Assembly (NCBI GenBank): GCA_963666115.2
Contig: CAXXET010000004.1
Span: forward strand, 288,001 to 352,000
Length of the DNA stretch: 64,000 nucleotides
Direction of reading: 5' to 3'
From: Dehalococcoidia bacterium
Lineage (GTDB): Bacteria; Chloroflexota; Dehalococcoidia; UBA6926
Of the stretch, positions 32,848 to 43,191 are shown one piece after another. The position numbers were made by a program, and so were the translations under genes. Under the pieces are notes generated by a model that searched no databases, was not told the origin of the DNA, and saw only the letters and a list, made by a program, of their open reading frames with translations. Numbering within the stretch: position 1 is the stretch's first letter; each line of letters begins with the position of its first letter.

Positions 32848-35800
32848 GTGGAGACCATGTTCACGCACCTGCACACCCATTCGGAGTTCAGCCTGCTGGA
32901 TGGCTTGTGCCGCATTCCCGACCTCGTCGGGCACGCCTGTGAACTTGGATTCGAGTCGCTTGCCCTGACCGATCACGGGAGCCTGTACGGCGTCGTCGAT
33001 TTCTATCGAGAGGCCCAAGAGGCGGGGATCAAGCCAATCATTGGCGTTGAGGCGTACGTCGCGCCAGGGAGCAGGACGGATCGCACGCCGGGCAACAATC
33101 AGCCGTATCATCTCGTCCTCCTCGCCAGGAATGACGAGGGGTACCACAACCTGCTGCGGCTTGTCAGCATCGCCCACCTGGAAGGCTTCTACTACCGGCC
33201 GCGGATGGACCGGGAGGTGCTGGAGCAGTACGGGGCGGGGCTGATCGCGCTGTCGGCGTGCATGGCAGGCGAGGTAGCCCGGGCGCTGACGGAAGGCCGG
33301 CTTGACGATGCGCGAGAGGCGGCGCTGTGGCACAAGAAGACGTTTGACGGGTATTACATCGAGATCCAGCGGCACCCGGGCATTGCGGAGCTTGACCGGC
33401 TGAACGCCATGCTGCTCGACCTGGCGCAGGAACTGGATATTCCCATTGTCGCAACGAATGACCTGCACTACACGCGGCGCGAGGATTCGGACGCGCACGA
33501 CGTGCTGCTGTGCATCCAGACGAACTCTACTGTCGATGACACGAACCGGATGCGGATGGACGACGACGGTTTCTACCTGAAGTCCGAGGCGGAGATGCGG
33601 GAGTTGTTCGCGGATCTGCCGGAGGCGATTGAGAACGCGGGACGCATCGCGGACGAGTGCAACCTTGAGTTGGAGTTCAACCGGCTGCTGCTGCCGCAGA
33701 TTGAACTGCCGGACGGGCTGTCGTCGTTCGAGTACCTCGAGCAGCTCTGCTACGAGGGATTTGAGCAAAGATACGCGGAATACGCGGACACGGAGGGGGC
33801 GCGCCAGCGCGTGGCGTATGAGCTGGACGTTATCCGCCAGATGGACTTCGCCGACTATTTCCTGGTGGTGTGGGACCTGGCGGCGTACGCGCGCAAGCAG
33901 GGAATCCTGGTGGGGGTGCGGGGGAGCGCGGCGGCCAGCGCGGTCCTGTACTGCCTCTATATCACGAATATCGAGCCGCTGCGCTATGACCTCGTCTTTG
34001 AGCGATTCCTGAATCTTGAGCGCAAGGAGATGCCGGATATCGACCTGGACATCGAGGACGAGCGGCGGGATGAGTTGATCGACTACGTGACGCGGCGGTA
34101 CGGACAGGACCGCGTGGCGCAGATCATCACGTTTGGGACGTTCGGGGCGCGGGCGGGCATCCGCGACGTCGGGCGGGCGATGGGGATGTCGTTCAACGAC
34201 GTGGACCAGGTGGCGCGGCTGCTGCCGGCGGGCGCGCATCCGTCATCGTTGCAAGACGCGCTCGACCGGCTGCCGCAGTTCAGGGAGGCCTACGACGGCG
34301 ACGAGACGGTGCAGAAGCTGGTCACGACGGCTATGCAGCTGGAGGGCATCGCGCGGAACGCGAGCACGCACGCGGCGGGGGTGGTGATCTCACGGGAACC
34401 GCTGGTCAACGTGGTGCCGCTCCAGCGGCCGGTGAAGAGCGCGGGTTCAGACGACGACGGCGTGCCGATGACGCAGTGGGACATGCACCGCGTGGCGGAG
34501 GCGGGGCTGCTCAAGCTCGACCTGCTGGGGCTGACGAACCTGACGACGCTGGCGCGGACGCGCGACCTGATCGAGCAGCGGTACGGCAAGCGCATCGACA
34601 TCGACTCAATTCCCCTTGACGATGCGAAGACCTTCGACCTGCTGTCCGCCGGCAAGACGATGGGCATCTTCCAGCTTGAGGGACAGGGGATGACGCGGTG
34701 GATACAGCGGCTGCAGCCGCAGACGTTGAATGAAATTTCGGCGATGATCGCGCTGTACCGGCCGGGGCCGATGGAGCATATACAGCACTATATCGACAGC
34801 AAGAAGGGCAAGATTTCCGTCACGTTTCCGCATGACGACCTAGCCGATATTTTGCATGAGACGTACGGCGTGATCGTGTACCAGGACCAGGTGCTGCAAA
34901 TTGCGCAGCGCTTTGCGGGGTACAGCCTCGGCCAGGCGGACATCGTGCGCAAGGCCATGGGCAAGAAGGTGCGGGAGATCATGGAGGCGGAGGAGCAGGG
35001 CTTCCTCGACGGGGCGCTGCAACAGGGGTACTCGCAGACCCAGGCGCGGGACATCTTCAAGCTCATCGAGCCGTTCGCGGGATACGCGTTCAACAAGGCG
35101 CACAGCGTGAGCTATGCGTACATCGCGTACCAGACGGCGTATTTCAAGGCGAACTATCCGCGTGAATACATGGCATCCCTGCTGAACGCGCATTTGGGGT
35201 CGCAGGACCGGGCGGGGGCGGACGCGGAGGAGTGCCGGACACTCGGGCTGACGGTCGCGCCGCCAAGCGTGAATGCAAGCACGGAGGAGTACTCAATCGA
35301 CGATGCCGCCGACCCCAACGACGACGCATCCGGGGAGGACGCGGTCATTCGCGTGGGGCTTTCGGCAATCAAGAACGTGGGGTACGGGGCGGCACAGTCG
35401 CTGGTGTCTGAACGAAAGGCGAACGGGCCGTTCAAGGACCTGGGCGACTTCATCGGGCGGGCGGATTTGACGTCGCTCAACCGGCGCGGGCTGGAGAACC
35501 TGGTCAAGGCGGGGGCGCTGGACGACCTGGGGGAACGCGCGACGCTGCTTGAGAACGTGGAGCGCATCCTGTCGTCGTCGGCACAGCAACAACGTCAGCG
35601 CAATTCGTCGCAAACAAGCATGTTCGACGCGATGGCAGACGACCCTGCCCTGTCGATCCCAAGCATCGAGCTAGCGGAGGCAGAGCAACCGGCGTCGAAT
35701 GAGGAGAAGGGGTCGTGGGAGAAGGAGTTGATGGGAATCCACTTCTCCAACGATCCGTACCGGGTGCTGCGCGCGGCGCGGTTGCCAGATGACCTAACGC

Positions 35801-36573
35801 CATGCACCAACGTCTCCGCCGAAATGGAAAGGGACAAGATTAACCTGGCGGGGATTGTGACGGCCGTGCGGACGTTTATGGTTCGCGAGAAAAATGCCGC
35901 TTCCGTCACGCTGAATGATCAATCAGGCGCCGCCACGGTGACTATCTGGCCGGAGCAATATGAGAAGTCGATGGACACATGGCAGATGAACACGCCGGTG
36001 CTTATTAGGGGAACCGTGCGTGTCCGCCAGGACGAGCCGTCCATCAATTGCGAAGAGTTCACCGTGCTGGAAGTGAGCGCGGAAGACCTTAAGGCTGCTC
36101 CGCCTGCTCCCCCGGCGGTGAACGGGCATTCATCCGCCAACGCAGTCAAAGACGAAAGCACGGACGGCGGCGCGGCGGTCGCTGAGCCTGTTCCTGTCGC
36201 AACAGAGGATGCGCCTAAGCAGGAGGCTGAGCCGGAACCGGAGAAGGGTGACGCGCCTGCTACAACGGACGTAAAGGCAGAGCGCGCGCCTGCCGTGGAG
36301 AAGCCATCGAATGGCGCGGCGGCGCGGGTGTTGATCTCCGTGATGCTGCACGAGACGCAGGACGAGGAGGCCGACGTTGACCGGCTGAACAGGGTTGTAC
36401 AGGCGTTGCGCGCACATCCGGGAGAGAGTCCGGTTCAGCTGGTGATCATGCAGCAGGGCGAGCAGTCCGTTATTACGATGGAATTCCGGACGGCTCACTC
36501 GGAGGAGTTGGAAACCGAGATCGCGGGGATTCTGGGCGGCAGTTTCCTGACGGTTCAGCCGCTGCTGATGTAG
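32848..36573 (+). CDS. dnaE: DNA polymerase III alpha subunit
   Basis: HLHTHSEFSLLDG PHP domain, RGSAAAS, MPDIDLD, STHAAGVV, YAFNKAHS. Confidence 0.97.
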   Translation: METMFTHLHTHSEFSLLDGLCRIPDLVGHACELGFESLALTDHGSLYGVVDFYREAQEAGIKPIIGVEAYVAPGSRTDRTPGNNQPYHLVLLARNDEGYHNLLRLVSIAHLEGFYYRPRMDREVLEQYGAGLIALSACMAGEVARALTEGRLDDAREAALWHKKTFDGYYIEIQRHPGIAELDRLNAMLLDLAQELDIPIVATNDLHYTRREDSDAHDVLLCIQTNSTVDDTNRMRMDDDGFYLKSEAEMRELFADLPEAIENAGRIADECNLELEFNRLLLPQIELPDGLSSFEYLEQLCYEGFEQRYAEYADTEGARQRVAYELDVIRQMDFADYFLVVWDLAAYARKQGILVGVRGSAAASAVLYCLYITNIEPLRYDLVFERFLNLERKEMPDIDLDIEDERRDELIDYVTRRYGQDRVAQIITFGTFGARAGIRDVGRAMGMSFNDVDQVARLLPAGAHPSSLQDALDRLPQFREAYDGDETVQKLVTTAMQLEGIARNASTHAAGVVISREPLVNVVPLQRPVKSAGSDDDGVPMTQWDMHRVAEAGLLKLDLLGLTNLTTLARTRDLIEQRYGKRIDIDSIPLDDAKTFDLLSAGKTMGIFQLEGQGMTRWIQRLQPQTLNEISAMIALYRPGPMEHIQHYIDSKKGKISVTFPHDDLADILHETYGVIVYQDQVLQIAQRFAGYSLGQADIVRKAMGKKVREIMEAEEQGFLDGALQQGYSQTQARDIFKLIEPFAGYAFNKAHSVSYAYIAYQTAYFKANYPREYMASLLNAHLGSQDRAGADAEECRTLGLTVAPPSVNASTEEYSIDDAADPNDDASGEDAVIRVGLSAIKNVGYGAAQSLVSERKANGPFKDLGDFIGRADLTSLNRRGLENLVKAGALDDLGERATLLENVERILSSSAQQQRQRNSSQTSMFDAMADDPALSIPSIELAEAEQPASNEEKGSWEKELMGIHFSNDPYRVLRAARLPDDLTPCTNVSAEMERDKINLAGIVTAVRTFMVREKNAASVTLNDQSGAATVTIWPEQYEKSMDTWQMNTPVLIRGTVRVRQDEPSINCEEFTVLEVSAEDLKAAPPAPPAVNGHSSANAVKDESTDGGAAVAEPVPVATEDAPKQEAEPEPEKGDAPATTDVKAERAPAVEKPSNGAAARVLISVMLHETQDEEADVDRLNRVVQALRAHPGESPVQLVIMQQGEQSVITMEFRTAHSEELETEIAGILGGSFLTVQPLLM

Positions 36574-36577
36574 TTAT

Positions 36578-36799
36578 ATGGAATGGACGCACCTGGCGAC
36601 GATGGACGACCAGATCAGCGCGGAGCTGCTGGTCCAGGCCCTGCGGGATGAGGGCATCGAGGCGCTGGTCAACCAGGGTGATACGAGCAGCTTTCTTGGC
36701 GTGATGGGACAGCCGTGCCGCGTGATGGTGCGGGCGGACGCATGGGGGCGGGCGACGGCGCTGTTGGAGAAGTGGGATTCTTCGCTACGCTCAGAATGA
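36578..36799 (+). CDS. DUF2007-like small protein; stop supplied by family A repeat (36776-36800)
   Basis: AELLVQALRDEGIEA...RVMV pattern. Confidence 0.7.
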   Translation: MEWTHLATMDDQISAELLVQALRDEGIEALVNQGDTSSFLGVMGQPCRVMVRADAWGRATALLEKWDSSLRSE

Positions 36800-36827
36800 C
36801 ATTATGCGGTCAGAATGACATGGGGGG

Positions 36828-37286
36828 TTAGGAGTTCCAGGGGCCGATGATGTCCTCTGTGCGCCAGCCGCCGTAGAAGTCGCCATGAACCAACTCAACG
36901 GGAAGGTCATCGACGTATGCCGCGTCGAGCTTCCACGTATAGAAGGCCATGTACTCCCTGATGCCCTCGTACTCCTCTTTCGGGTTCACGTAGCTCCAGA
37001 TTGCCGCTTCCGCGTGCCGGTCACCGACACGGACGCCCCAGTAGCTGGCGGCGCCTTTGAAGGGTCAAGTGGAGGTGCGCTCCTCAGCGACAAGGAATTC
37101 CTGCCGCACGTCCTCAGGCGGAAAGTAGTAGACGGGCGGCATGTCCTTTTCAACGATGCGGACACCGCGCGTCGTTTCCGCAAGGATTTCCCCGCCGAAC
37201 TCTACGCGCAGCCGGCGGTTCACCGGCTGAACCGGGCCGGGAGACGGCGGGTAATCGGCTGCTGATTCGCGGTCGGCGGTTGTCAT
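36828..37286 (-). CDS. DUF427 (NTP_transf_9)-family protein, 152 aa, with in-frame TGA at codon 74; putative selenoprotein
   Basis: Frame continues past TGA (37065-37067) as ST-U-PFKGAASYW..AIWSYVNP..MAFY..GDFYGGW..IIGPWNS-TAA; U sits at the family TxCPxKG cysteine. Confidence 0.85.
37032..37055 (-). other. Candidate bacterial SECIS hairpin
   Basis: GGCGCC-G-CCA-GCUAC-UGG-GGCGUC stem-loop starting 9 nt after UGA; G-initiated loop about 19 nt from UGA. Confidence 0.55.
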
Positions 37287-37343
37287 TGGATTGCTCCTTT
37301 TGATTGTGGCGTATGGGGGGATTGTACGCCTTTTGGGGGGATA

Positions 37344-37368
37344 AATTCTTCGCTGCGCTCAGAATGAC
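37344..37368 (+). repeat. Family A palindrome downstream of mutL
   Basis: AATTCTTCGCTGCGCTCAGAATGAC. Confidence 0.85.
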
Positions 37369-37376
37369 ATTCGGGG

Positions 37377-39209
37377 TTAGCGGCGGCCGAATTGGCGTTC
37401 AAGTTGGGCGGAGCTGAGGTGGACCATCGTCGGGCGGCCGTGGGGGCATAGGCGGGGGAAGTTGGCGTCGCTGAACAGGGTGATCAGGGACTCCATTTCG
37501 GCGAGGGAGAGGGTCTGACCGGCACGGACGGTGGAGTGGCAGGCGATGGTGGCTGCGACGCGCCTTTCCCGCATATCGACGGCGTCCGCGGCCTGGGTGA
37601 TTACGGTATCAGAAGTATCAGCTTCATCAGGGGAGGACTGGATTCCCGCTTTCGCGGGAATGACGGAGGGGTAGTCGTCGATTTCGCCGCCGGAACGCTC
37701 GTCTAGGACTTCGAGGAAGGCTTGCGGGGCCTCTGATTCTTTCAGCGTCGCGGGCATGGCGCGGAGGAGGATAGCATCGTCGCCGAACGTCTCCCACTCG
37801 AACCCGTAGGACGATAGGAGATCGCTCAAGGGGGCGATGGCATCCTGTTGGCGAGTTGTGAGTTGGACGGTGGCAGGCGTGAGGAGGCCCTGCGACGTGG
37901 CGGTCTGCTCTCTGCGCCCGGCGAGGATCTGTTCAAAGACGACGCGTTCATGGGCGGCGTGCTGATCAATGAGGTACATGCCGTCCGGGCCTTCGGCGAC
38001 GATGTAGGTGAGGCCGACCTGGCCGACGGGGCGGAGGGTGAATTGTTGCGGGGGGGGCGGTGCGCCACTGTGTTCGGTTGCCGAATTGGGGTCAAGATTC
38101 CCGCTTTCGCGGGAAAAAGGAGAGGGGGGTGGGAAGAGGGGCGGGGGTTCGAGTTGGATTTCGGCGTCGGGGGGGGCGGAGGGGATTGGGGTTCCTGCTT
38201 GCGCGGGAACAACTGCTGGGAGGTGGACGGCGAGGGTGCGGCGGAGGGCGCGCTGAACGGTTGCGATGACTTCGCCCTCACGCCGCAACCGCACTTCTGC
38301 CTTGGTGGGATGAACGTTGACGTCAATCTCATCGGGCGGGACGGTGACAAAGAGGACAACGAGGGGATAGCGCCCTCGCTGGATGATGTCGCGGTAGGCG
38401 TCGGCAATGGCGTAATAGAGGATGCGGGCCTCAACCAGGCGTCCATTGATAAAGAGAATTTGGCCAGCGCGGCGCGGGCGCGTGGTGCCCGGCTCACTGG
38501 CATAGCCCGAGACGGTCGTTCCGCCCATGGTGGTGGGCTGGATGGGAAGCATACCGGACGCGGTGTCCGGGCCCCACATTTCGAGCAGGACATGGGAAGC
38601 ATCGCCGCTGCCGGGTGAGTGGAACGCGAGGCGTCCATCGACGATGACACGGAGAGCGACATCGGGGTGCGCGAGGGCGTACTGAGTGAGGACGGTAACG
38701 CAGCGCGTCGCCTCGGCGGCGGCTGAGCGGAGGAATGAGAGGCGGGCGGGAACGTTCTTGAAGAGGTCGCGGACAAAGACGGTGGTGCCGAACGGCGCGC
38801 CCTGCATGCCCCGCTCGATGATGTCATTGTCGGCGGCGATGACGTACTGGCCGCCCTCAGTATCCGAAACGCGGGAGACGATTGTCATGCGGGCGACGGC
38901 TGCGATAGAGGCAAGAGCCTCACCGCGAAAGCCGAGAGTGCCGATGCGCTCAAGGTCCCGGACTGTTCGCAACTTGGACGTGGCGTGGCGCATGACGGCG
39001 AGTTCAAGTTCATCCTCCGGGATGCCGGATGCGTCGTCGGTAACGCGGATGAGGTCGAGGCCGCCACGCACGATTTCAACTTCGACCTGGCCGGCGCCGG
39101 CGTCGATTGCGTTTTCGACCAGTTCCTTGACGACGGACGCGGGGCGTTCGATGACCTCGCCGGCAGCGATCTTGGAGGCTACGTCTCGGTCGAGGAGTTG
39201 GATGGGCAT
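37377..39209 (-). CDS. mutL: DNA mismatch repair endonuclease MutL, with three in-frame family B repeats
   Basis: IAAGEVIERPASVVKELVEN, RHATSK, GFRGEAL, DVNVHPTK, DQHAAHER, ACH, CPHGRP. Confidence 0.97.
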   Translation of the reverse strand: MPIQLLDRDVASKIAAGEVIERPASVVKELVENAIDAGAGQVEVEIVRGGLDLIRVTDDASGIPEDELELAVMRHATSKLRTVRDLERIGTLGFRGEALASIAAVARMTIVSRVSDTEGGQYVIAADNDIIERGMQGAPFGTTVFVRDLFKNVPARLSFLRSAAAEATRCVTVLTQYALAHPDVALRVIVDGRLAFHSPGSGDASHVLLEMWGPDTASGMLPIQPTTMGGTTVSGYASEPGTTRPRRAGQILFINGRLVEARILYYAIADAYRDIIQRGRYPLVVLFVTVPPDEIDVNVHPTKAEVRLRREGEVIATVQRALRRTLAVHLPAVVPAQAGTPIPSAPPDAEIQLEPPPLFPPPSPFSRESGNLDPNSATEHSGAPPPPQQFTLRPVGQVGLTYIVAEGPDGMYLIDQHAAHERVVFEQILAGRREQTATSQGLLTPATVQLTTRQQDAIAPLSDLLSSYGFEWETFGDDAILLRAMPATLKESEAPQAFLEVLDERSGGEIDDYPSVIPAKAGIQSSPDEADTSDTVITQAADAVDMRERRVAATIACHSTVRAGQTLSLAEMESLITLFSDANFPRLCPHGRPTMVHLSSAQLERQFGRR

Positions 39210-39210
39210 A

Positions 39211-41844
39211 TCAGTCGCCGCTCGCGCCGTTCCTGCCCTGCTCTGCCAGCTTCTTTAGGTCGTAGAGCTTGGCGAGGGCTTCCATGGGCGTCATCTGATC
39301 AGGGGCCAGGCCGAGGATTTCCTTTTCGACTTGCGTGGCGTCAACCGCCGTCTGCGCGGGGCCGGAATGCAGGCTGAACAGGGCGGGCTGGGCGCCCGTT
39401 CCGGCGGATTGTGAGCCGCCTGCGCCATTCTCAAGCTGGCCGAGAACTTCCTGGGCACGGGCGACAACATCACGGGGCAGGCCGGCAAGCTGCGCGACGT
39501 GGACGCCGTAGGAGCGGTCCGCGCCGCCCGGAACGACCTGCCGCAGGAAAACGACCTTGCCCTCCTCTTCGGAAACGAGGACGTGAAGGTTGAAGGCGCG
39601 GGGGAGGGTCTCGCCGAGTTCGACAAGCTCATGGTAGTGGGTGGCGAACGCGGTGCGGGCGTTGAGGCGGGGGTGATTGTGAATATGCTCCACGACGGCC
39701 CACGCGATGGACAGGCCGTCATAGGTGCTTGTTCCCCTCCCTGTTTCGTCGAGGATGATGAGGGACCGGTCAGTGGCCTGGTGGAGGATGGCAGCGGTTT
39801 CAATCATCTCGACCATGAAGGTTGAGCGCCCGGTTGAGATGTCATCGTGGAGGCCGGCGCGTGTGAAGATGCGGTCTACGAGACCGACGCGGGCAGCAGC
39901 CGCAGGGACAAAGGAGCCGATCTGCGCCATGAGGGCGATGAGGGCAATCTGGCGGAGATAGGTGGACTTACCGGCCATGTTGGGGCCGGTGATAATCGCA
40001 ATGGGTCGGTTTTCCATGAGAGAGATGTCGTTCGGGACGAACGGCTCGTCAAGGACTTCCTCCACGACGGGATGGCGGGCTGAGGTTGCCTCCAATACGC
40101 GGGATTCGTCGATCTCGGGGCGGGTCAGGCGGAGCCGGACGGCGTTCTCGGCGAAAGCCGCAAGGACATCAAGGCGGGCGACGGCGCGGGCGGTGGCGAG
40201 GATGGACTCGCCCTGCTCCACAATCTGTTGGCAGACCTGTCGGAAGATGGCGGATTCAAGCTCCTCTGCGCGCTGCTGCGCTTCGGAAATCTGAACTTCA
40301 AGCTCCTTGAGCCGGGGGGTGAAAAAGCGCTCGCCTCCCGCAATCGTCTGCTTGCGGATGTAATGCTCCGGCACGCGGGGGAGGTGGGGACGCGTGACCT
40401 CGATGTAGTACCCAAAGACGCGGGTGTAGCCAACTTTGAGCGTCGGGATCGCGGTGGCGTCGCGCTCTTCGGTTTCGAGCGCGGCGACGGCGACACGGGC
40501 ATCCGAGGAGACCGCACGCAAGTCTTCAAGCTCCTGCGAGAATCCCTTGCGCACGACGCCGCCTGCGGAAAGAGTTGCGCCAGGCTCATCGGCGACGGCC
40601 TCATTCAACAGCTTGCGGATTTCATCATGCGTTTCGACGTCGTTGAGAGTCCATGCCAGCGGGCTGACGGTTTCATCGTCTCTCGCAATTTCGGGCAGCG
40701 GGGCGGCGTTCAATACGGCGTGGACGCCTGCGACGGCTTCAAGGCCGCGGCGAACGGCAACAACATCGCGGGGCGCGGCGGAGCCGGAGCGGATGAAGTT
40801 GATGAGCCGCTCAAGATCCGGGAGCCCGTGCATGGCAGCGCGCAGACGTGAGCGGAGCATGGGGTCCTGCGCCAGCGCCTCAACGTTGTCATGCCGTTCG
40901 ACTATGGCCTCGCGGTTGAGGAGAGGGCGTCCGAGCCACTGGCGGAGCAGGCGGCGTCCCATGGGGGTCTGCGTTGTATCGAGGAGGCCGAGCAACCCGC
41001 CTTCGCGCGCGCCGGAACTGCCCTCAAAGAGTTCAAGGGTGCGTATCGTTTGGGGATCGAGAATCATCATTTCCGCCGTTTGGCGGGTGGAGAGGGTTTG
41101 AACCTGCGTGAGAGCGCCGCGCTGCGTTTCCTGTAGATAGGCGAGCACGGCTCCCGCCGCCGAGATTGCCAGCGGCATGTTCTCGCAGCCATACGGTTCA
41201 AGGGAGTACACACCAAAGTGCGCCACGAGGCGTTGACGGGCGTCGCGTTCATCAAATGTGGATGCATCGGCTGAGACGAGCGCGGCATCGTCAAGAACCG
41301 GCGGCGCATCGAGGCTTTCCGGGACGAGCAGCTCTACCGGAGCGAGCGCGCCAAGTTCCGTTTGCAGATCATCCACGGAGAGTTCGAGCGTAACGAATTC
41401 GGATGTGGAGATATCCGCGTAGGCCAGCCCGGCGCGCTGGCCGTCAACAGTGACGGCCGCGAGGAAATTATTGGCGCTCTCAGGCAGCAAATCGTGTTGG
41501 AGGACGGTGCCGGGCGTGACGACGCGGATAATCTCGCGGTCGAGGATACCCTTTGCCGTCTTGGGGTCGCCGAACTGCTCGCAGACGGCAACCCTGTGCC
41601 CTTTCTCCAGCAGGCGGGCTAACGAGGCATCGAGGGAATGGGTGGGAACGCCGGCAAGAGGAACACGATGGCCGCGTCCAAGCTCCTTGGAGGTGAGGGC
41701 GATGCCCAGGTCACGCGACACGATTTCGGCGTCTTCCCCGAACGTCTCGTAGAAGTCGCCGAGCCGAAAGAGCAGGATTCCGTCCGGGAACTCGGCCTTG
41801 ATCCGCTCGTATTGCCGCTTAAGGGGAGAACCCCGTGTGGTCAT
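39211..41844 (-). CDS. mutS: DNA mismatch repair protein MutS
   Basis: LFRLGDFYE, TGPNMAGKST, STFMVEM, DETGRGT, FATHYHEL; probable start MTTRGSP at 41844. Confidence 0.97.
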   Translation of the reverse strand: MTTRGSPLKRQYERIKAEFPDGILLFRLGDFYETFGEDAEIVSRDLGIALTSKELGRGHRVPLAGVPTHSLDASLARLLEKGHRVAVCEQFGDPKTAKGILDREIIRVVTPGTVLQHDLLPESANNFLAAVTVDGQRAGLAYADISTSEFVTLELSVDDLQTELGALAPVELLVPESLDAPPVLDDAALVSADASTFDERDARQRLVAHFGVYSLEPYGCENMPLAISAAGAVLAYLQETQRGALTQVQTLSTRQTAEMMILDPQTIRTLELFEGSSGAREGGLLGLLDTTQTPMGRRLLRQWLGRPLLNREAIVERHDNVEALAQDPMLRSRLRAAMHGLPDLERLINFIRSGSAAPRDVVAVRRGLEAVAGVHAVLNAAPLPEIARDDETVSPLAWTLNDVETHDEIRKLLNEAVADEPGATLSAGGVVRKGFSQELEDLRAVSSDARVAVAALETEERDATAIPTLKVGYTRVFGYYIEVTRPHLPRVPEHYIRKQTIAGGERFFTPRLKELEVQISEAQQRAEELESAIFRQVCQQIVEQGESILATARAVARLDVLAAFAENAVRLRLTRPEIDESRVLEATSARHPVVEEVLDEPFVPNDISLMENRPIAIITGPNMAGKSTYLRQIALIALMAQIGSFVPAAAARVGLVDRIFTRAGLHDDISTGRSTFMVEMIETAAILHQATDRSLIILDETGRGTSTYDGLSIAWAVVEHIHNHPRLNARTAFATHYHELVELGETLPRAFNLHVLVSEEEGKVVFLRQVVPGGADRSYGVHVAQLAGLPRDVVARAQEVLGQLENGAGGSQSAGTGAQPALFSLHSGPAQTAVDATQVEKEILGLAPDQMTPMEALAKLYDLKKLAEQGRNGASGD

Positions 41845-41892
41845 GGAGCGAGTATAGCGGGGAGGGCGCGCGGGGCGGTAGGATTCGAGGAT

Positions 41893-43191
41893 ATGAGGGA
41901 ACGTGGATCGACTGTTGAGGCTGGGCAGGGCGCGGCGGCGGGGCGGCGCCTCTATACACGTTCTTTCGTCCTGCTGTTCCTGATGGAGTTCACGATCTTC
42001 GTGACCTTCTACATGCTGCTGCCGACGGTGCCGCTGTACATCAAGGAGTTGGGCGGCACAAATTCGACCGTTGGGCTGGTCATCGGCATCGCCGGGCCCG
42101 TCGCGGCGTTCGGCGTCCCCCTGTACGGGCTGGGCGTGGACAGGTGGAGCCGCAAGGGAATGGCGGTTCTCGGATTGATGATCAACGTTGCCGGCGCGCT
42201 GGTGATGATCATCGTCGTGTCGCCGCTGATGATGCTGATACCGACGATTCTGCGGCGCGTGGGGTCCGGCGCAACGGGGGCGGCGACGCGGACGCTGATC
42301 CTGGACATTGCGCCGCCGAGCAGGCGCGGCGAGGCGATGACGAACTTTGCCACGTCGCACAACATCGCCATCGCGTTTGGGCCCGCCGTTGGGCTGTGGA
42401 TCTATCACGGTTTCGGATCGACGGAACTGTTCCTTGCGTGCGCTGCGGTGATGGCGGGGGCGGCGTTGTTTTTGTGGCCTGTGGGCGGACGCCCTCACCC
42501 TAGCCCTCTCCCGGGGGGAGAGGGGGCAGCGGCTGGCGACGCCAAACGTGTCCCAGAGGGAGAAGAGAGCGGAGAGCCGCGACGGGAGACGTGGGTGGAC
42601 AAGTTGATTGTGCCGGAGGCGCTTGTGCCGGGGATCACGGTGCTGCTGTTGTCCGCAGCGTACCTGGCAACGACGACATTCGTGTCCATCCTGGGAGAGA
42701 CGCGGGATGTGCCGAATTACGAGTGGTTCTTCGTGCTGTACGCGGTCGTGGTTATTTCCGGGCGCCTGCTGACAGGCCGCGTCTCCGATACGTATGGCCG
42801 GGCAATTATCCTGCTACCGTCGCTGGCGCTGACGGTGGGGTGCATGGTGACGCTGGCGTTTACGTATTCGACCGCCGGGTTCCTCGCGGCGGCGTTCATG
42901 CTGGGGCTGGGGTTTGGAACAGGACAGCCAATGCTGCAAGCCCTCGCGGCCGACTGGACACCGCCGGAGAAGTACGGGCGCGCGATGTCCATGATGATGG
43001 GCGGTTTCTCGTTCGGCTCGGCTGCGGGAACGGTATTCGTTGGCGAGGTGAGCGAACGACTGGACTTCACGGCGGCGTTCCTGGGGCTGGCAGTGTCGGC
43101 CGGCATTGCGCTGCTCATCGCGTGGTGGGGATTCCGGCGGCGCCGGATCCCGGTGTTTGGGGCGGCGGCGCGGCGGGGTACAATCGGATAG
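41893..43191 (+). CDS. MFS transporter with in-frame family D repeat in the central loop
   Basis: About 12 TM segments, GLGVDRWSRK and GRVSDTYGR motif A; GRPHPSPLPGGEG from 42492-42526. Confidence 0.9.
   Translation: MRERGSTVEAGQGAAAGRRLYTRSFVLLFLMEFTIFVTFYMLLPTVPLYIKELGGTNSTVGLVIGIAGPVAAFGVPLYGLGVDRWSRKGMAVLGLMINVAGALVMIIVVSPLMMLIPTILRRVGSGATGAATRTLILDIAPPSRRGEAMTNFATSHNIAIAFGPAVGLWIYHGFGSTELFLACAAVMAGAALFLWPVGGRPHPSPLPGGEGAAAGDAKRVPEGEESGEPRRETWVDKLIVPEALVPGITVLLLSAAYLATTTFVSILGETRDVPNYEWFFVLYAVVVISGRLLTGRVSDTYGRAIILLPSLALTVGCMVTLAFTYSTAGFLAAAFMLGLGFGTGQPMLQALAADWTPPEKYGRAMSMMMGGFSFGSAAGTVFVGEVSERLDFTAAFLGLAVSAGIALLIAWWGFRRRRIPVFGAAARRGTIG

Follow-up and report, generated by a model that had tools for sequence, protein, structure and literature searches.

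The window, that is, the whole stretch of 64,000 nucleotides that was analyzed, contains on its minus strand (37286..36828) a single frame of 152 codons that encodes a DUF427 protein. If TGA is translated as U, the frame comprises 73 codons, U74, and 78 sense codons before the terminal TAA, and the TGA at codon 74 is its sole internal stop. This TGA lies in the context ...AEERTST-U-PFKGAASYWGV.... On the same strand the mismatch repair genes mutS and mutL lie upstream, and dnaE converges on the locus from the other side. The features are, in the order of their coordinates:

32848-36573, plus strand: dnaE, converging on the DUF427 gene
36578-36799, plus strand: DUF2007 gene (73 aa, E 7.2e-10 to 'putative prokaryotic signal transducing protein'), next after dnaE
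36828-37286, minus strand: full DUF427 gene with ATG at 37286-37284, 152 codons, one in-frame TGA, and TAA at 36830-36828
36828-36989, minus strand: 53-aa ORF (table 11), the C-terminal part, opened by an in-frame GTG at codon 100
37032-37055, minus strand: SECIS-like hairpin of 6 bp, a bulged G, and 4 bp with a 3-nt loop, +10 to +33 after the UGA
37065-37067, minus strand: codon 74, TGA, predicted to be read as selenocysteine and aligned to the conserved Cys of DUF427
37065-37286, minus strand: 73-aa ORF (table 11), the N-terminal part
37068-37073, minus strand: codons 72-73 (TCC ACT) directly before the UGA, without synonymous variation in 20 of 20 Sec orthologues
37294-37300, minus strand: AAAGGAG resembling a Shine-Dalgarno motif, 7 nt ahead of the ATG, as read from the sequence
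37377-39209, minus strand: mutL, upstream of the DUF427 gene
39211-42498, minus strand: mutS, upstream of the DUF427 gene

The 152-residue translation matches the Pfam family PF04248 (short name NTP_transf_9, description DUF427) with an E-value of 1.2e-31 and 108.8 bits, above the gathering score (cut-off 22.1), and this match spans the TGA (residues 27-117, profile positions 2-92 of 93). At E <= 0.01 no other Pfam family was found in the protein, SelR (PF01641) included, and NCBIfam release 20.0 contributed no family at the same threshold and hence no curated selenoprotein model. A first-pass annotation made from the letters of the window had described an ORF that ends at 73 aa, a frame that runs on for 78 more sense codons with intact DUF427 motifs, and a lone TGA within ERTST-TGA-PFKGAASYW. 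Translation with TGA as U reproduced the frame and placed the TGA at 37067-37065, and the profile match across this codon bears out the integrity of the motifs. Public gene calls split the Sec-form genes into fragments of 73 and 53 aa, and these genes are thus misannotated. In two protein collections the Sec forms occur only as such unnamed fragments; those of 73 aa fall into eight clusters of a protein collection, and the C-terminal ORFs of 53 aa are kept separate from them, all unnamed. Searches with the short fragments retrieved 13 matches, which belong to close relatives only.

The column under the TGA is occupied by Cys in 19 of 22 full-length homologues, in at least 90% of a 51-row alignment, and in 357 of 423 non-Sec DUF427 domain sequences cut out by the profile, where Ser comes next (30 sequences). 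The conserved Cys that the first-pass annotation had ascribed to DUF427 at this place is therefore found. The three other full-length homologues have Ser, His, or Asp in this column, which counts against the selenocysteine reading. A second Cys, at the place D-x-C-x-V, was read from the alignment in 21 of the 22 full-length homologues; all 22 genes of the genus have Ala instead. The protein of the window contains no Cys elsewhere, and Sec74 would be its only Cys-type residue. When UGA and Cys share a conserved column and the genome is Sec-competent, this pairing is the standard hallmark of a selenoprotein.

In a genome search, every other species of the genus (21 of 21) yielded an orthologue, six genomes of the two other genera of the family yielded none, and one weak match was obtained elsewhere among 61 genomes. 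At codon 74, 20 of the 22 translated genes have TGA, and two (G001 and G009) have TGC. All 22 are free of other stops and of indels, and their protein identity to the gene of the window ranges from 68 to 93%. Nei-Gojobori estimates for the 22 orthologues gave dN/dS ratios of 0.06-0.26 for codons 75-151 and of 0.04-0.13 for codons 1-73, with synonymous sites near saturation in the distant pairs. Thus, the TGA is not unique to one strain, and relaxed selection downstream of it, which the first-pass annotation had named as evidence against its reading, was not seen. The most informative segment comprises codons 75-99. It holds the most conserved residues of DUF427 (K77, G78, A80, and Y82) and has a pN/pS of 0.14-0.50, yet the first in-frame ATG, GTG, or TTG past the TGA is found only at codon 95-100. 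Because this segment is under selection but lacks a usable start, it can be translated only by reading through the TGA. Comparison among the species thus documents both the conservation of the UGA and translation downstream of it.

These data bear on three explanations that do without an unusual decoding of the UGA. According to the first, the TGA is a true stop that leaves a pseudogene or an N-terminal piece of 73 residues only. This is the call made by the public gene callers, from which the eight clusters of short fragments and the separate 53-aa ORFs derive. However, 20 species, at 68-93% protein identity, have retained both the TGA and the uninterrupted frame that follows, and the downstream part evolves under the low dN/dS given above without acquiring further stops or indels, so that a true stop is extremely improbable. 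The second explanation, a split gene, builds on the GTG found in frame at codon 100. The polypeptide of residues 1-73 would be made separately from a C-terminal one starting at this codon, and the two would then assemble. Such an arrangement would leave out codons 75-99, which have no start before codon 95-100 and nevertheless show the constraint described and carry the most conserved motif of the family; its chance of being correct is exceedingly small. Selection on these codons, together with the kept frame, excludes that the gene is split, that it is a pseudogene, or that the TGA is a nonsense mutation of one strain. In the third explanation, a sequencing or assembly error would conceal a true TGC or TGT codon. 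No point in favor of such an error was found, and the same TGA occurs in 20 separately assembled species. Moreover, contigs from four public runs, which stem from four studies, cover the TGA site, and none among the 40 differences listed (22 more exist) falls on 37065-37067. The probability of an error at this codon is practically negligible. An RNA run covering the stretch was not found among the 12 public runs listed, and no run contained half of the sampled words.

The genome (2.07 Mb, 9 contigs, 100% complete) encodes the machinery for selenocysteine insertion, with all components above their cut-offs. The tRNA-Sec scored 68 bits (cut-off 47) and was also identified by ARAGORN as tRNA-SeC with the anticodon tca; selA reached 539 bits (cut-off 267.9), selB 330 bits (cut-off 242.25), and selD 387 bits (cut-off 125). 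The selD gene (G000:C6:420976-421899, locus L010) has one in-frame TGA of its own, in the context ...HCAG-U-AAKLGP..., and hairpins follow. Because of this in-frame TGA, SelD is predicted to be a second selenoprotein of the organism. Both Cys-form species (G001 and G009) have kept selA, so that the TGC codons in their DUF427 genes are not due to a loss of the machinery. A genome-wide reassignment of TGA does not apply either, because TGA terminates 331 of the 795 open frames in this genome that are 400 codons or longer.

Another possibility is that the UGA is read through without Sec-tRNA, by a near-cognate Trp or Cys tRNA or with the help of a local recoding signal. The comparison of orthologues speaks for continued translation rather than for the identity of the inserted residue, and the hairpin behind the UGA could stimulate plain read-through as well. 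However, the Cys that relatives have in this column makes up the classic Sec/Cys pairing, the full Sec machinery is present, a comparable site in the genome's own selD is also occupied by TGA, and elsewhere in this genome TGA commonly serves as a stop. Read-through without selenocysteine is thus very improbable. The preferred reading, to which we assign a high probability, is that of a genuine, conserved, and unannotated selenoprotein gene, in which UGA codon 74 would direct the incorporation of selenocysteine into one DUF427 protein of 152 residues. The first-pass annotation had arrived at a Sec-containing member of DUF427 as well, and the machinery, the TGA/Cys pairs, the selection downstream, and the hairpin all lend support to that proposal. 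The machinery itself is documented by comparison; the insertion of selenocysteine at codon 74 is what we infer from these sequence data. In the proposed pathway, which is the usual one in bacteria, SelD would make selenophosphate, SelA would turn Ser-tRNA(Sec) into Sec-tRNA(Sec), and SelB would bring the latter to the ribosome when held by the mRNA hairpin just 3' of the UGA (+10 to +33).

Among single hairpins behind the UGA this one (37055-37032) ranks best, with a dG of -14.7 kcal/mol, and its coordinates coincide exactly with those of the stem-loop proposed in the first-pass annotation. In a comparison of the 76 nt around it with shuffled sequences a z of -1.94 was obtained. As 5 of 200 shuffles folded equally well, the hairpin on its own is within chance, and the comparative data carry the weight. 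In most of the genus a variant occurs in a register moved by three bases, GGACGCC...GGCGUCC, with 7 bp. For the Sec forms of the genus and of the two-domain genes described below, a common register of 8 pairs was defined on 25 segments, 16 of them distinct. In this register 76.6% of the cells are paired, compared to 25-55% after displacement of the 3' partners by 1-3 columns, and none of 500 shuffles reached the same value, although both the pairing and the shuffle figures are inflated by kinship and by the fact that the structure was taken from the same sequences. Two of the 8 pairs change on both sides, from C-G to U-A. Both sides of the stem lie within codons for conserved amino acids, and the protein sequence therefore accounts for some of the pairing.

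Cys homologues provide the appropriate contrast. On average, 6.12 of the 8 pairs of the common register are formed in the 16 distinct Sec forms and 3.16 in 108 distinct Cys forms, and 7 of the 8 positions are paired in 9 of the 16 but in only 1 of the 108, where the Sec forms represent two clades and not 16 independent cases. The mean folding energy of the segment +7 to +42 is -13.2 kcal/mol in Sec forms versus -7.7 kcal/mol in Cys forms, at a G+C content of 0.60 and 0.56, respectively. According to this comparison, the hairpin is specific to the Sec forms and far better kept in them than in the Cys homologues. The one Cys form that attains 7 of 8 pairs, L038, comes from the genus itself and folds equally well; its hairpin looks like a relic left by a recent change from Sec to Cys. 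Not every Sec form conforms to the common register: the orthologue L041 has only 3 of the 8 pairs and a different best fold, and in the two genes of G223, a member of another class, the hairpins lie further 3' (+16 to +53). Synonymous variation within the genus reaches its minimum around the UGA: among 102 windows, entropy is lowest in those starting at codons 67-73, and GGC at codon 84 is invariant in 20 of 20 Sec orthologues. An Rfam scan of 36700-37400 at E <= 10 returned only a chance match to a microRNA (16.7 bits). A perfect 8-bp hairpin found further 3' in the species of the window was dropped as a candidate, as it is not kept in the orthologues. The hairpin at +10 to +33 is the probable SECIS element, as predicted from sequence.

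Genome sampling revealed how widely Sec forms of DUF427 are spread. In an even sample of the phylum of the window DUF427 was found in 126 of 401 genomes; G327, which is unpublished, is counted here, and no claim depends on it. Among the 150 matches listed from this sample (72 further matches exist), three contain one TGA. A 401-genome sample of the class contained DUF427 in 63 genomes. Outside the genus, one TGA was found there in G641, G599, G685, G727, G425, G674, and G553, which belong to three genera of one family, and also in G652 from another family. Six of these genomes (G425, G641, G599, G652, G727, and G553; loci L075 and L077-L081) encode two-domain DUF427 proteins of approximately 265 residues, and in all six genes translation verified that the TGA falls in the same column. 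Here, U occupies the column of the first domain, in the motif ...T[HF]-U-PI[KR]GDA..., and the second domain has Ser or, in G652, Cys. In G727, a frame resembling zinc-type alcohol dehydrogenases is located directly upstream of the two-domain gene. A third arrangement exists in G223 (locus L076, G223:C503:9068-12343), where two single-domain DUF427 genes in tandem both have TGA at the Cys column. These paralogues are 48% identical over 123 columns, and both have kept the second conserved Cys. Of these Sec-form genomes outside the genus, the two checked for selA, G425 and G223, contain this gene. Hence, single-domain genes, a tandem pair, and the first domain of two-domain proteins are the Sec arrangements found in the phylum. 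Altogether, translation verified the TGA at this column for at least 27 genomes, of which seven lie outside the genus and within the same phylum, so that the TGA/Cys pairs, with 20 TGA and two TGC in the genus, extend to other lineages of the phylum.

Among 110 further loci from many phyla, 106 matched the DUF427 motif, and all of these have Cys at the column. In another phylum, that of G764, DUF427 was detected in 10 of 401 genomes, and TGA in none of 12 matches. Sec forms are therefore rare in DUF427 and, within the genomes searched, confined to the phylum of the window, which the names of some closer database homologues suggest to be Chloroflexota. In the class sample, two DUF427 matches (G401:C2:79729-79980 and G612:C172:1788-2039) contain one in-frame TAG, not TGA. 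The number of origins was addressed by a tree of 73 domain sequences and 123 columns, from which the Sec column was excluded; it included 17 rows from Sec loci, their 8 nearest neighbours, and 48 other sequences taken at even steps from 451. On this quick tree the Sec label requires 4 changes, and at least 3 of them are forced by the starred branches. In the AU test, a single clade of all Sec forms plus the Cys forms of the genus was not rejected (p 0.071).

No report of DUF427, PF04248, or COG2343 as a selenoprotein was found among the full-text papers listed, where a listing under another name in the supplements of selenoprotein screens is possible. [quoted passage not shown] DUF427 is thus filed here as a new selenoprotein family for which no earlier report was found. 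By its sequence features, the gene would be a bacterial Sec/Cys family with the SECIS inside the coding region. It shares the kind of evidence (UGA in frame at a conserved Cys, a 3' hairpin, and Sec machinery in the genome) and the proposed insertion mechanism with predicted Sec/Cys DUF families such as DUF523, DUF1858, DUF3179, DUF166, and DUF1573, which are tabulated in the review (PMC13188914). According to the same text, most prokaryotic selenoprotein families have a UxxC or CxxU motif and a thioredoxin-like fold, whereas DUF427 has neither. Besides the addition of one family to the list of prokaryotic selenoproteins, the recognition of the Sec forms puts right the gene calls that were split in at least 27 genomes. 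The family is large (4,746 clusters at E <= 0.001 in a representative search) and has no assigned function, although a solved DUF427 structure has existed since 2008. An exchange of Sec and Cys is one of the rare clues to a residue doing chemistry that can be obtained from sequence. It flags the conserved Cys/Sec column as the likely active residue of DUF427 and makes this proposal testable.

An AlphaFold2 (AF2) model of the protein, calculated from 51 rows, has a pLDDT of 93.7 and a pTM of 0.89. Its closest structural match is 3DJM, a Cys-type DUF427 protein from Rhodobacter sphaeroides (Foldseek E 5e-9, TM 0.83 on the target; VIA-align 2 Z 16.6), which has the same fold (rmsd 1.5 over 112 residues), belongs to the same family by sequence (E 1.6e-14), and has the same motif around the Cys column. 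Compared to the Cys-type proteins, that of the window has Sec for the conserved and Ala for the second Cys. In the model, Sec74 ends strand 65-74, which is the first strand of the C-terminal sheet, and the conserved K77-G78 turn comes next. On this basis, Sec74 would be located beside the conserved residues A80/Y82 and W97/Y99. Beyond DUF427, VIA-align 2 matched the model to the yippee domain of Mis18 (Z 8.7) and, at Z-scores below 8 that may mean just a common arrangement, to YPEL5 (6.5), the CULT domain of cereblon (5.7), the C-terminal domains of RIG-I and MDA5 (5.5 and 5.3), human MsrB1 (3MAO, 5.2), the MsrB of S. aureus (7CTO, 4.5), Mss4 (4.2), GFA (3.8), and a further MsrB (5FA9, 3.6). 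The description of the beta-tent fold in PMC4287342 groups these matched families and names DUF427 as a member without a zinc site. The main substrate sites of beta-tent domains are said there to occupy the same place in the fold, and the catalytic Cys of MsrB is located above strand beta-7 (PMC4287342).

MsrB proteins resemble DUF427 in kind, without membership in a common family: both appear to be of the beta-tent fold class, and MsrB, likewise small, works through a single catalytic Cys. This Cys is replaced by Sec in some lineages, for example in animal MsrB1. However, no sequence similarity to MsrB was detected (Pfam, E <= 0.01), and DUF427 lacks the zinc site. The catalytic Cys of MsrB is placed above strand beta-7, whereas the modelled Sec74 is located where the first strand of the C-terminal sheet ends, and the weak structural similarity (Z 5.2 for the human and 4.5 for the S. 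aureus enzyme) counts against a catalytic role of the Sec residue. In line with the role suggested in the first-pass annotation, Sec74 is proposed to be the catalytic nucleophile or redox center of a small one-Cys/Sec enzyme. It would attack a small substrate in an aromatic pocket, and an external thiol, thioredoxin for instance, would restore the reacted Sec74, as in one-Cys MsrB. By analogy, DUF427 proteins might be small beta-tent reductases with one reactive Cys that act, like MsrB, on oxidized sulfur or selenium compounds, and in which Cys would have been changed to Sec more than once in the phylum. We regard this extended proposal as rather doubtful. In this context, PMC13674229 reports that genes for sulfoxide/selenoxide synthases of the ergothioneine/selenoneine type are accompanied by COG2343/DUF427 in 5.7% of such clusters. 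If the proteins were reductases, this co-occurrence would point to the class of their substrates. However, egtB (TIGR03440) was not found in the genome of the window, and the ergothioneine/selenoneine lead does not carry over directly to this organism.

The surroundings of the DUF427 gene are largely shared within the genus. A mutL match adjoins the gene in 19 of 21 loci of the other species, and the DUF2007 gene is kept in 20 of 21. The two loci without an adjoining mutL match are the Cys forms G001 and G009. In G001 (G001:C221, L038/L044) a second, partial copy of the DUF427 gene, comprising residues 109-151 with 61-63% identity, was observed approximately 1.5 kb downstream. Neither a promoter nor a terminator was found in a scan of 36500-37500. 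The gene of the window is bracketed by a 27-nt direct repeat on the plus strand (36777-36803 and 37345-37371, 96% identical), a weaker copy of which is located at 36796-36822 on the same strand. With 87 copies at no more than 4 mismatches in the 2.07-Mb genome, this repeat is a dispersed intergenic element and thus not specific to the DUF427 gene; public contigs pile up at its copies.
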